Of a DNA stretch of 64,000 nt, positions 5,668 through 11,600 are shown in pieces; positions within the stretch are counted from its first letter, which is position 1; each line of letters begins with the position of its first letter. This stretch comes from Eledone cirrhosa (lineage: Eukaryota), in the NCBI GenBank assembly GCA_964016885.1, contig OZ024743.1, positions 224,874,001 through 224,938,000 on the forward strand. The letters run 5' to 3'. The position numbers and the translations under genes were made by a program. Below the pieces are notes generated by a model. That model saw nothing but the letters and a program-made list of their open reading frames with translations, had not been told where the DNA came from and did no database searches.

Positions 5668-8604
5668 AATTAAGTCAAAGATGTACATCCATATATGTAT
5701 ACTGAAATACTAGTATGTATATGAATACACACACGTATACATATGTAGATGTACCAAGTTTTTTTCACTGATCACTTTACTGTGAGTGGCCAGCTATTCT
5801 GTATGTAAACACACAGACAAACCGGTTTTTAGAGTCATACTGGTTTTTGAGGAAACACCTTTCCTCTATTCTCCAGAAAGCCAGACAAGGAATATTGAAC
5901 TAGTTTCGTTGTTGTTACAACTCATCAGCAATATTTACCTATCTTCCGGCCTCTCTAGAGAATCGTAAAAGCACATATCGCTATATGCTTTTTCTATGAA
6001 AATTAGTAGTGGGCAGACCAACTTGCATAGAGTGTGAGTAAGTACCGGTTCAACGGAGACGATAAAAACAAATAACGAAACGAAATTAAATTTCGTTTCG
6101 TTTGTAACTCACTTTTGTATGACTGACGCTCAAACAATTAAGTCAAAGATGTACATCCATATATGTATACTGAAATACTAGTATGTATATGAATACACAC
6201 ACGTATACATATGTAGATGTACCAAGTTTTTTTCACTGATCACTTTACTGTGAGTGGCCAGCTATTCTGTATGTAAACACACAGACAAACCGGTTTTTAG
6301 AGTCATACTGGTTTTTGAGGAAACACCTTTCCTCTATTCTCCAGAAAGCCAGACAAGGAATATTGAACTAGTTTCGTTGTTGTTACAACTCATCAGCAAT
6401 ATTTACCTATCTTCCGGCCTCTCTAGAGAATCGTAAAAGCACATATCGCTATATGCTTTTTCTATGAAAATTAGTAGTGGGCAGACCAACTTGCATAGAG
6501 TGTGAGTAAGTACCGGTTCAACGGAGACGATAAAAACAAATAACGAAACGAAATTAAATTTCGTTTCGTTTGTAACTCACTTTTGTATGACTGACGCTCA
6601 AACAATTAAGTCAAAGATGTACATCCATATATGTATACTGAAATACTAGTATGTATATGAATACACACACGTATACATATGTAGATGTACCAAGTTTTTT
6701 TCACTGATCACTTTACTGTGAGTGGCCAGCTATTCTGTATGTAAACACACAGACAAACCGGTTTTTAGAGTCATACTGGTTTTTGAGGAAACACCTTTCC
6801 TCTATTCTCCAGAAAGCCAGACAAGGAATATTGAACTAGTTTCGTTGTTGTTACAACTCATCAGCAATATTTACCTATCTTCCGGCCTCTCTAGAGAATC
6901 GTAAAAGCACATATCGCTATATGCTTTTTCTATGAAAATTAGTAGTGGGCAGACCAACTTGCATAGAGTGTGAGTAAGTACCGGTTCAACGGAGACGATA
7001 AAAACAAATAACGAAACGAAATTAAATTTCGTTTCGTTTGTAACTCACTTTTGTATGACTGACGCTCAAACAATTAAGTCAAAGATGTACATCCATATAT
7101 GTATACTGAAATACTAGTATGTATATGAATACACACACGTATACATATGTAGATGTACCAAGTTTTTTTCACTGATCACTTTACTGTGAGTGGCCAGCTA
7201 TTCTGTATGTAAACACACAGACAAACCGGTTTTTAGAGTCATACTGGTTTTTGAGGAAACACCTTTCCTCTATTCTCCAGAAAGCCAGACAAGGAATATT
7301 GAACTAGTTTCGTTGTTGTTACAACTCATCAGCAATATTTACCTATCTTCCGGCCTCTCTAGAGAATCGTAAAAGCACATATCGCTATATGCTTTTTCTA
7401 TGAAAATTAGTAGTGGGCAGACCAACTTGCATAGAGTGTGAGTAAGTACCGGTTCAACGGAGACGATAAAAACAAATAACGAAACGAAATTAAATTTCGT
7501 TTCGTTTGTAACTCACTTTTGTATGACTGACGCTCAAACAATTAAGTCAAAGATGTACATCCATATATGTATACTGAAATACTAGTATGTATATGAATAC
7601 ACACACGTATACATATGTAGATGTACCAAGTTTTTTTCACTGATCACTTTACTGTGAGTGGCCAGCTATTCTGTATGTAAACACACAGACAAACCGGTTT
7701 TTAGAGTCATACTGGTTTTTGAGGAAACACCTTTCCTCTATTCTCCAGAAAGCCAGACAAGGAATATTGAACTAGTTTCGTTGTTGTTACAACTCATCAG
7801 CAATATTTACCTATCTTCCGGCCTCTCTAGAGAATCGTAAAAGCACATATCGCTATATGCTTTTTCTATGAAAATTAGTAGTGGGCAGACCAACTTGCAT
7901 AGAGTGTGAGTAAGTACCGGTTCAACGGAGACGATAAAAACAAATAACGAAACGAAATTAAATTTCGTTTCGTTTGTAACTCACTTTTGTATGACTGACG
8001 CTCAAACAATTAAGTCAAAGATGTACATCCATATATGTATACTGAAATACTAGTATGTATATGAATACACACACGTATACATATGTAGATGTACCAAGTT
8101 TTTTTCACTGATCACTTTACTGTGAGTGGCCAGCTATTCTGTATGTAAACACACAGACAAACCGGTTTTTAGAGTCATACTGGTTTTTGAGGAAACACCT
8201 TTCCTCTATTCTCCAGAAAGCCAGACAAGGAATATTGAACTAGTTTCGTTGTTGTTACAACTCATCAGCAATATTTACCTATCTTCCGGCCTCTCTAGAG
8301 AATCGTAAAAGCACATATCGCTATATGCTTTTTCTATGAAAATTAGTAGTGGGCAGACCAACTTGCATAGAGTGTGAGTAAGTACCGGTTCAACGGAGAC
8401 GATAAAAACAAATAACGAAACGAAATTAAATTTCGTTTCGTTTGTAACTCACTTTTGTATGACTGACGCTCAAACAATTAAGTCAAAGATGTACATCCAT
8501 ATATGTATACTGAAATACTAGTATGTATATGAATACACACACGTATACATATGTAGATGTACCAAGTTTTTTTCACTGATCACTTTACTGTGAGTGGCCA
8601 GCTA
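5668..8604 (-). repeat. Left arm of the 468-bp retrozyme-like tandem array (about 6.3 units; hammerhead sense on the minus strand)
   Basis: Exact 468-bp period (ORF track starts 5786, 6254, 6722, 7190, 7658, 8126); no differences between units seen. Confidence 0.95.
5891..5935 (-). ncRNA. Minimal type I hammerhead ribozyme (representative; also at 6359, 6827, 7295, 7763, 8231 on -)
   Basis: Reverse complement of aatattgaactagtttcgttgttgttacaactcatcagcaatatt; identical to the right-arm ribozymes. Confidence 0.9.
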
Positions 8605-11600
8605 AGTGAGTTACAAACGAAACGAAATTTAATTTCGTTTCGTTATTTGTTTTTATCGTCTCCGTTGAACCGGTACTTACTCACACTCTATGCAAGTTGG
8701 TCTGCCCACTACTAATTTTCATAGAAAAAGCATATAGCGATATGTGCTTTTACGATTCTCTAGAGAGGCCGGAAGATAGGTAAATATTGCTGATGAGTTG
8801 TAACAACAACGAAACTAGTTCAATATTCCTTGTCTGGCTTTCTGGAGAATAGAGGAAAGGTGTTTCCTCAAAAACCAGTATGACTCTAAAAACCGGTTTG
8901 TCTGTGTGTTTACATACAGAATAGCTGGCCACTCACAGTAAAGTGATCAGTGAAAAAAACTTGGTACATCTACATATGTATACGTGTGTGTATTCATATA
9001 CATACTAGTATTTCAGTATACATATATGGATGTACATCTTTGACTTAATTGTTTGAGCGTCAGTCATACAAAAGTGAGTTACAAACGAAACGAAATTTAA
9101 TTTCGTTTCGTTATTTGTTTTTATCGTCTCCGTTGAACCGGTACTTACTCACACTCTATGCAAGTTGGTCTGCCCACTACTAATTTTCATAGAAAAAGCA
9201 TATAGCGATATGTGCTTTTACGATTCTCTAGAGAGGCCGGAAGATAGGTAAATATTGCTGATGAGTTGTAACAACAACGAAACTAGTTCAATATTCCTTG
9301 TCTGGCTTTCTGGAGAATAGAGGAAAGGTGTTTCCTCAAAAACCAGTATGACTCTAAAAACCGGTTTGTCTGTGTGTTTACATACAGAATAGCTGGCCAC
9401 TCACAGTAAAGTGATCAGTGAAAAAAACTTGGTACATCTACATATGTATACGTGTGTGTATTCATATACATACTAGTATTTCAGTATACATATATGGATG
9501 TACATCTTTGACTTAATTGTTTGAGCGTCAGTCATACAAAAGTGAGTTACAAACGAAACGAAATTTAATTTCGTTTCGTTATTTGTTTTTATCGTCTCCG
9601 TTGAACCGGTACTTACTCACACTCTATGCAAGTTGGTCTGCCCACTACTAATTTTCATAGAAAAAGCATATAGCGATATGTGCTTTTACGATTCTCTAGA
9701 GAGGCCGGAAGATAGGTAAATATTGCTGATGAGTTGTAACAACAACGAAACTAGTTCAATATTCCTTGTCTGGCTTTCTGGAGAATAGAGGAAAGGTGTT
9801 TCCTCAAAAACCAGTATGACTCTAAAAACCGGTTTGTCTGTGTGTTTACATACAGAATAGCTGGCCACTCACAGTAAAGTGATCAGTGAAAAAAACTTGG
9901 TACATCTACATATGTATACGTGTGTGTATTCATATACATACTAGTATTTCAGTATACATATATGGATGTACATCTTTGACTTAATTGTTTGAGCGTCAGT
10001 CATACAAAAGTGAGTTACAAACGAAACGAAATTTAATTTCGTTTCGTTATTTGTTTTTATCGTCTCCGTTGAACCGGTACTTACTCACACTCTATGCAAG
10101 TTGGTCTGCCCACTACTAATTTTCATAGAAAAAGCATATAGCGATATGTGCTTTTACGATTCTCTAGAGAGGCCGGAAGATAGGTAAATATTGCTGATGA
10201 GTTGTAACAACAACGAAACTAGTTCAATATTCCTTGTCTGGCTTTCTGGAGAATAGAGGAAAGGTGTTTCCTCAAAAACCAGTATGACTCTAAAAACCGG
10301 TTTGTCTGTGTGTTTACATACAGAATAGCTGGCCACTCACAGTAAAGTGATCAGTGAAAAAAACTTGGTACATCTACATATGTATACGTGTGTGTATTCA
10401 TATACATACTAGTATTTCAGTATACATATATGGATGTACATCTTTGACTTAATTGTTTGAGCGTCAGTCATACAAAAGTGAGTTACAAACGAAACGAAAT
10501 TTAATTTCGTTTCGTTATTTGTTTTTATCGTCTCCGTTGAACCGGTACTTACTCACACTCTATGCAAGAGTTGGTCTGCCCACTACTAATTTTCATAGAA
10601 AAAGCATATAGCGATATGTGCTTTTACGATTCTCTAGAGAGGCCGGAAGATAGGTAAATATTGCTGATGAGTTGTAACAACAACGAAACTAGTTCAATAT
10701 TCCTTGTCTGGCTTTCTGGAGAATAGAGGAAAGGTGTTTCCTCAAAAACCAGTATGACTCTAAAAACCGGTTTGTCTGTGTGTTTACATACAGAATAGCT
10801 GGCCACTCACAGTAAAGTGATCAGTGAAAAAAACTTGGTACATCTACATATGTATACGTGTGTGTATTCATATACATACTAGTATTTCAGTATACATATA
10901 TGGATGTACATCTTTGACTTAATTGTTTGAGCGTCAGTCATACAAAAGTGAGTTACAAACGAAACGAAATTTAATTTCGTTTCGTTATTTGTTTTTATCG
11001 TCTCCGTTGAACCGGTACTTACTCACACTCTATGCAAGTTGGTCTGCCCACTACTAATTTTCATAGAAAAAGCATATAGCGATATGTGCTTTTACGATTC
11101 TCTAGAGAGGCCGGAAGATAGGTAAATATTGCTGATGAGTTGTAACAACAACGAAACTAGTTCAATATTCCTTGTCTGGCTTTCTGGAGAATAGAGGAAA
11201 GGTGTTTCCTCAAAAACCAGTATGACTCTAAAAACCGGTTTGTCTGTGTGTTTACATACAGAATAGCTGGCCACTCACAGTAAAGTGATCAGTGAAAAAA
11301 ACTTGGTACATCTACATATGTATACGTGTGTGTATTCATATACATACTAGTATTTCAGTATACATATATGGATGTACATCTTTGACTTAATTGTTTGAGC
11401 GTCAGTCATACAAAAGTGAGTTACAAACGAAACGAAATTTAATTTCGTTTCGTTATTTGTTTTTATCGTCTCCGTTGAACCGGTACTTACTCACACTCTA
11501 TGCAAGTTGGTCTGCCCACTACTAATTTTCATAGAAAAAGCATATAGCGATATGTGCTTTTACGATTCTCTAGAGAGGCCGGAAGATAGGTAAATATTGC

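Follow-up and report, generated by a model that had tools for sequence, protein, structure and literature searches.

How could two arrays of one short repeat come to stand head to head in the middle of a (TA)n microsatellite? This question is raised by a locus of Eledone cirrhosa (GCA_964016885.1, contig OZ024743.1, positions 224,874,001 to 224,938,000 of the forward strand; these 64,000 nucleotides as a whole are called the window below), in which every unit of the repeat carries a predicted hammerhead ribozyme. We consider it likely that the locus is a young, protein-free retrozyme insertion made via a borrowed enzyme of a Penelope-like element (PLE), priming both strands of the target on one probably circular RNA.

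The array period is 468 bp in both arms, and unit position 1 was set at window position 8821, the first base 3' of the inferred hammerhead cut. The original prediction, made from the letters of the window, had described two head-to-head arrays, and their coordinates were confirmed. The locus is composed as follows:

5397..5667, no strand: (TA)n tract on the left, belonging to the target microsatellite
5657..5668, plus strand: 12-bp target-site duplication, left copy; the final base also belongs to the left arm end
5668..8604, minus strand (ribozyme sense): left arm, 6.28 units with six hammerhead motifs; 5' end at unit position 102, 3' end at 230 (tail-less end)
8604..8604, no strand: head-to-head junction, 1-nt overlap, unit positions 102 and 252 joined
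8604..11934, plus strand (ribozyme sense): right arm, 7.12 units with seven hammerhead motifs; 5' start at unit position 252, 3' end at 304 (tailed end)
8783..8827, plus strand: predicted type I hammerhead motif, core from 8790, inferred cut after 8820
8964..9035, plus strand: predicted long hairpin (unit 144-215), z = -4.5, in every full unit
10567..10568, plus strand: 2-nt insertion, the sole difference among complete units
11861..11934, plus strand: tail of 74 nt (unit 231-304), confined to the right end
11932..11943, plus strand: target-site duplication, right copy; the three leading bases (TAT) also belong to the right arm end
11935..12240, no strand: right (TA)n tract

The two arms have a single A in common at 8604, which makes the junction asymmetric. 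Their outward-facing 3' ends abut (TA)n, and none of the four breakpoints (102, 230, 252 and 304) coincides with the ribozyme cut between unit positions 468 and 1; all this agrees with the original prediction. Complete cut-to-cut units are identical in 10 of 11 cases, the remaining one carrying the 2-nt insertion. The imperfect 12-mer TATTTATATATA occurs once in each TA tract (5657-5668 and 11932-11943). This pair is a target-site duplication, which had been overlooked in the original prediction.

We examined 109 insertions of the family in four sets. Set A (34 insertions) came from 33 of 428 candidates scored in a search with the unit DNA and set B (26 insertions) from the first 100 hammerhead matches on contig 1; set C (45 insertions) was chosen by the 230 end and set D (4 insertions) by the 304 end. 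Only sets A and B, together 60 insertions, are unselected for ends, and sets A and C are biased toward the youngest subfamily. Three BLAST matches to TA-rich DNA were removed overall and three BLAST end calls were replaced by exact ends; in sets A and B, removal of two such TA-like matches from 102 end rows left 100 ends.

The 3' ends of the arms were found at two fixed sites. In sets A and B, 55 of 100 ends lie at unit positions 300-305 and 43 at 225-234, with 2 elsewhere; in the second group, 40 ends were called at one of the T positions 230, 232, 233 and 234, and position 231, which is a G, has none. All two-arm insertions (75/75) are head to head, none is tail-to-tail, and 71 have one end of each type while none has two alike; three of the rest have one atypical end and one ends in a gap. 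Among 34 single-arm insertions, nine possess a tiny opposite arm of the other type and two are cut off. The exit from the unit into (AT)n at position 304 was also present in short-read contigs of three runs from one sample (10, 10 and 5 times), and the tail measures 70-74 nt across the family. The inner 5' breakpoints, in contrast to the fixed 3' ends, are uniform over the unit (Kolmogorov-Smirnov p = 0.67, n = 134 arms) and not piled up at the ribozyme cut in two-arm loci (9/134, p = 0.29). The lengths of the two arms of a locus show a weak correlation (Spearman 0.38, n = 67), and there is a tendency for the tailed arm to exceed its partner in length (p = 0.011).

These ends leave next to no room for the mechanism first proposed, in which both strands would prime at arbitrary AT-rich points on a circle, as in L1 twin priming. 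The window locus alone, with its two different AT-rich ends, would allow it, and the circular permutation which it foresaw was indeed observed for the inner breakpoints; but 98 of 100 outer ends occupy two sites, 71 of 75 two-arm insertions have an end at each, and fixed termini were what the original prediction itself had named as contradicting it. AT-richness fails to explain fixed ends since each unit offers 16 TAT and 52 AT-only triplets with a final T. L1-type twin priming was likewise rejected. That both strands prime was upheld, but the second site is fixed and the first arm does not stop there: only 6 of 67 tailed arms stop near 230 (at 215-245), which is no enrichment (p = 0.28). The proper comparison is the tail of PLEs rather than L1.

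Target sites were compared in 71 loci, and TA flanks on both sides were present in 62 of them, as expected from the original prediction. Flank matches other than pure TA were found in 26 of the 71 loci, compared to 9.4 (maximum 15) over 100 shuffles. Of these, 17 measured 11-13 bp and one 16 bp; the other 8 were long run-throughs of 28-42 bp in TA or periodic flanks and were excluded from the 11-13 bp count. In strict register a 12-bp match was observed in 7 of 21 informative loci and a 13-bp match in 3 of 30; lengths of 8, 10 or 14-16 bp gave no match. Outward 3' ends inside the duplication would be the expected trace of two 3' overhangs priming on sense RNA, which bears out the earlier claim that both target strands were primed. 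The 48 young junctions comprise 31 with overlaps of 0-5 nt and 17 with inserts of 1-33 nt, and the mean overlap of 1.48 nt exceeds the 0.74 nt expected by chance (p = 1e-5). Short overlaps and inserts at joints fit microhomology-type joining, and the notion that two cDNAs were joined held up as well.

An assembly chimera, or expansion at the DNA level followed by rearrangement, could in principle yield an inverted array. No short-read contig from four public runs bridges the junction at 8604, which is uninformative either way, and some long arrays did grow in place. Nevertheless, the asymmetric junction, the 12-bp duplication and the recurrence of the two-end rule at 71 loci as well as in two further families make this explanation barely credible. 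Since the head-to-head orientation is repeated in every two-arm insertion, the arrangement is neither chance nor chimera; the junction is real, and unequal crossing-over is insufficient, as had been argued.

The same two-end rule was observed for PLEs of this genome. As an autonomous control we used a 3-kb element with an open reading frame (ORF) of 780 aa and the motifs RWK, DKT, CxCX5C, CxxC and CxH, which are given for the Hydra clade in the text of PMC8557442. Both ends were visible in 8 of 12 loci with inverted pairs of this element, and in all eight pairs one end was short and the other long, with about 110 nt between them; their flanks are nearly pure TA and the target duplications hence uninformative. 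A second hammerhead repeat followed the one-short-one-long rule in 6 of 6 head-to-head pairs. The rule is therefore a PLE trait in this genome. The window locus and its family display the features of PLE-type insertions, namely an inverted 5'-truncated copy, a one-sided tail, and a TA target with a short duplication. We are thus confident that a PLE enzyme primed both strands at fixed sites.

The second hammerhead repeat, of about 470-500 bp, was seen at L077:1390-1900, L152:3200-3750 and L035:1700-2300 and in loci L156, L062 and L120, and resembles the unit in the stem III loop and the hairpin. The window itself contains, at 43900-45334 on the minus strand, the 3' part of a Hydra-type PLE (ORF piece 44660-45334) with its short end in (TA)n; this family is very abundant, has ORFs of 780-800 aa elsewhere, and its terminal repeat includes a hammerhead with a long stem II, recognized by eye. 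Another Hydra-like fragment, 36% identical to the first, lies at 34511-34954 on the plus strand. PLE-like ORFs were further noted at L083:4852-7191 (780 aa, weak RVT_1 match) and L076:843-4232 (1130 aa), the latter with an asparagine-rich insert; comparable inserts are described for rotifer Penelope in PMC3846280. A short likeness near one Hydra-type end was considered as a link to a partner element and dismissed as too weak.

The inverted arm could also have arisen from a single priming event at a fixed site, as a fold-back or template-switch copy whose end was set by endonuclease resolution. This has been proposed for PLEs (PMC3846280 and PMC8557442), where the inversion is ascribed to self-priming and the tail to endonuclease resolution, and it directly accounts for identical arms; nearly symmetric junctions are in weak excess (7/67, p = 0.066). 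However, 60 of 67 junctions are out of phase and either arm may be by far the longer of the pair. Moreover, both ends overlap target bases within the duplication, and both match the in vitro start sites reported for another PLE (PMC11167929). We therefore regard fold-back copying as improbable and retain priming of both strands.

What, then, was the template? The ribozyme cut is crossed in 144 of 176 arms and at least twice in 98 of them, which excludes cleaved monomers read once. In 34 of 39 arms with at least four units, no substitution was common to a subset of units (indels were not scored), and 60 loci represent 29 haplotypes, almost all of them uniform from unit to unit. Of 66 arm pairs, 44 show no difference between the arms. 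For young pairs this holds in 37 of 46, compared to 27% after shuffling (at most 43% in 2000 shuffles), a contrast that is overstated if a single source dominated at any one time; identity within a locus thus exceeds that between loci, as predicted.

Dual priming on two separate RNA molecules, one per strand, would agree with the predicted dimer of the protein (PMC11167929), with the 13 of 66 arm pairs that differ at two or more sites, and with one mosaic locus. Yet rare variants are common to both arms, arm identity lies above all 2000 shuffles and most differing pairs come from older subfamilies, so that we give this possibility very little weight and return to a single template. In the mosaic locus (L121:5244-9372) the tailed arm changes from one haplotype to another in the vicinity of unit 304-325; the insertion has a 22-nt deletion and no target duplication, and the mosaic may reflect a template switch or recombination.

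Five variants fixed within a locus were then followed genome-wide, and three of them are present in all units of a single locus but fill no further array. The first is confined to the 7 units of its own locus, the second occurs in 7 units and in 9 scattered single copies, and the third in 11 units and in 18 copies with at most two per locus. One-monomer rolling copying is favoured because the mutation fills all units of both arms and the assembly contains no source array for it. The assembly is a single haplotype set, which bounds such searches; sources absent from it are possible and would need an equal monomer step earlier. Given fixed-site priming by a PLE enzyme, we consider it quite probable that one circular monomer was the usual template. 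The circle of the original prediction is, as far as sequences can tell, favoured at the level of the family, but the window locus has no private marker and is uninformative, its haplotype being the commonest (28 of 60 loci).

The same priming could have taken place on a multimeric transcript, linear and uncleaved, that came from a source array of uniform units, which explains the window locus equally well because of that common haplotype. Several observations weigh in this direction and against a circle. Two of the five variants, private in the sample, were found in other arrays genome-wide, and long arrays of at least 63 units exist as a potential source of multimeric transcripts. For monomers with a short palindromic stem III, weak cleavage is reported (PMC4209133), and in the in vitro work of PMC11167929 the PLE used mostly uncleaved linear RNA. 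Furthermore, when first passing the cut, 8 of 152 arms stop within 25 nt of it on the 3' side (p = 0.007 against an expectation of 1.8%), and for later passages the figure is 8 of 406 (p = 0.32); some templates were therefore likely linear. As the general template, a linear multimer nevertheless seems unlikely, since three variants fill all 7-11 units of one locus and have no source array in the assembly, since 29 nearly always homogeneous haplotypes in 60 loci would require repeated monomer-to-multimer steps, and since arrays grown in place are heterogeneous, with higher-order patterns. An example of a long array is the satellite at L086-L088 (G000:C1:95644000-95673999), with at least 63 units of an 86%-identical subfamily, higher-order repeats and ends beyond the region examined; a 465-bp subfamily forms long inverted arrays at G000:C3:18907120-18914320, C3:205538998-205548084 and others.

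Further points count against PLE-driven copying of one circle. One arm only was present in 23 of 109 insertions, three loci with informative flanks show no duplication, and one arm, that of L121, is a mosaic of two haplotypes. The tail of 70-74 nt is longer than the 30-40 nt given in the PLE literature consulted. BLAST, hammerhead scans and tblastn of the sampled loci, which covered a small part of the genome's PLE families (several were seen), revealed no autonomous element sharing the ribozyme or tail of the unit. The retrozyme family is known here from DNA, from which cleavage and RNA circles are predicted.

The unit itself has a GC content of about 0.36. Its hammerhead motifs, 13 at 468-bp spacing across both arms, possess a 7-bp stem I, a 5-bp stem II and a palindromic stem III loop. 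In older subfamilies stem II is changed on both sides and a GUC triplet stands at the matching place; an Rfam scan gave no match of the unit at gathering score. No ORF of at least 120 aa was found within the arms, so that the unit is non-coding, nor was an ORF for a reverse transcriptase with a GIY-YIG endonuclease, and the locus is thus not an autonomous PLE. The predicted hairpin at unit 144-215 stops 15 nt before the 230 end, and a predicted 13-bp hairpin within the tail (unit 264-292) stops 12 nt before the 304 end, so that both 3' end sites lie 12-15 nt 3' of a predicted hairpin (z of -4.5 and -3.4, respectively). The family is dispersed, with 9305 hammerhead cores in the genome and 2297 matches to the 304-end pattern, some of the latter being internal variants. 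With a type I hammerhead in each tandem unit, a short, non-coding unit of low GC and a dispersed family, the repeat is a non-LTR (long terminal repeat) retrozyme with a PLE insertion footprint, its cleavage being predicted only. Words of the unit (window 8604-9071) occur in 20 public runs, which come from 17 studies and represent 17 coded organisms; no RNA run was among those listed, and four runs were examined.

These data can be combined in the following model. A staggered cut would leave 12-nt 3' overhangs, in line with the 12-bp duplication and the outward 3' ends, and each overhang would anneal over 1-3 nt, at one or other of two start sites that are internal and fixed; in the family, arm ends are mostly T adjoining an A of the target. 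The start sites, 12-15 nt 3' of a predicted hairpin, may be likened to the two PLE start sites that bound the tail. One monomer would be copied repeatedly, most simply as a circle, as arms cross the cut many times and share a haplotype, and the two cDNAs would be joined by microhomology-type end joining, consistent with the uniform inner breakpoints and the short overlaps or inserts. In this dual-site loading model a Penelope-type enzyme pair would load on one ribozyme-made circle at two hairpin-defined sites about 72 nt apart, one site per strand of the 12-nt staggered cut, and both copies would roll on the same circle before being joined.

On balance we slightly incline to the view that these insertions, with dual-site loading, preserve in the genome a direct trace of rolling-circle reverse transcription in the germ line of an animal. 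If this is true, the tail and the inverted copy of PLEs would be products of one event, with an asymmetry that did not show in vitro. The origin of these inverted copies and tails, and the movement of retrozymes via RNA circles, are posed as open in the literature consulted. The family supplies young insertions by the thousand, whose template is 468 nt long and whose ends are exact to the base, and quantities open to test (two start sites with one for each strand, a stagger of 12 nt, and arms that are clonal), and it ties retrozymes to PLE enzymes by an insertion footprint, beyond co-occurrence. As the component parts are each known or proposed, the model is sharpened and no new class is added.

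Elsewhere in the window, a non-LTR retrotransposon with an RVT_1 match, presumably RTE-like, lies at 18312-21585 on the plus strand; pieces of it were found at 4698-5370, 23583-24371, 51957-52583 and 61400-61867, several of them ending at microsatellites. An 8.6-kb TA-rich tract (24448-33067) contains a nested ORF piece like that of long interspersed elements at 28526-29380.

Animal retrozymes were defined by Cervera and de la Pena (2020; PMC7229834), where tandem cDNA made from circles by PLE enzymes is put forward as a hypothesis; such copying of circles was proposed for PLEs in PMC4209133. Li, Clavereau and Pollet (2026; 10.64898/2026.07.22.740005) link retrozymes to PLEs by distribution and homology and, in the text available, leave the mechanism open. 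The present repeat resembles metazoan non-LTR retrozymes in its non-coding tandem units, type I hammerhead, low GC, dispersed short arrays and co-occurrence with PLEs, but its 468-nt unit is slightly above the 170-400 nt RNAs of PMC7229834. Inverted arms, fixed paired ends and a tail are absent from the main texts of PMC7229834 and 10.64898/2026.07.22.740005, and no published report of inverted retrozyme arrays with paired fixed ends was found in a search of the literature outside supplements and subscription journals.

L1 twin and dual priming, as defined by Meyer et al. (2010; PMC2837659), share with the present insertions the priming by both 3' overhangs and the two inverted fragments within target duplications. 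In L1, however, the second primer anneals internally and an internal deletion results, whereas the present insertions have two fixed starts and two arms that copy one and the same sequence over and over, and the second start is not the point where the first arm stops.

Closer is the likeness to endonuclease-bearing PLEs, in particular those of the Hydra clade. Inverted copies, one-sided tails and TA targets of PLEs have been described (Craig et al., 2021, PMC8557442; Arkhipova et al., 2013, PMC3846280), and according to these texts the elements have in common with our family a head-to-head 5'-truncated copy, a tail at one end, (TA)n targets, duplications of about 10 bp and a hammerhead in the repeat. 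They differ in their RT-endonuclease ORF, which is missing here, and the arms of the present insertions are multimers of one small unit; the tail of 70-74 nt is also shorter than the approximately 110 nt of the Hydra-type element in the same genome.

For the Poseidon element PAc, extension of both strands from two start sites bounding the tail was demonstrated in vitro (Frangieh et al., 2024, PMC11167929). No strand difference in start site is given there, whereas each insertion described here has one site of each kind, and PAc started without homology to the DNA while our arm ends overlap the target by 1-3 nt. Both systems have in common internal initiation at two fixed RNA sites, an AT-rich target, and the cutting and extension of both strands.

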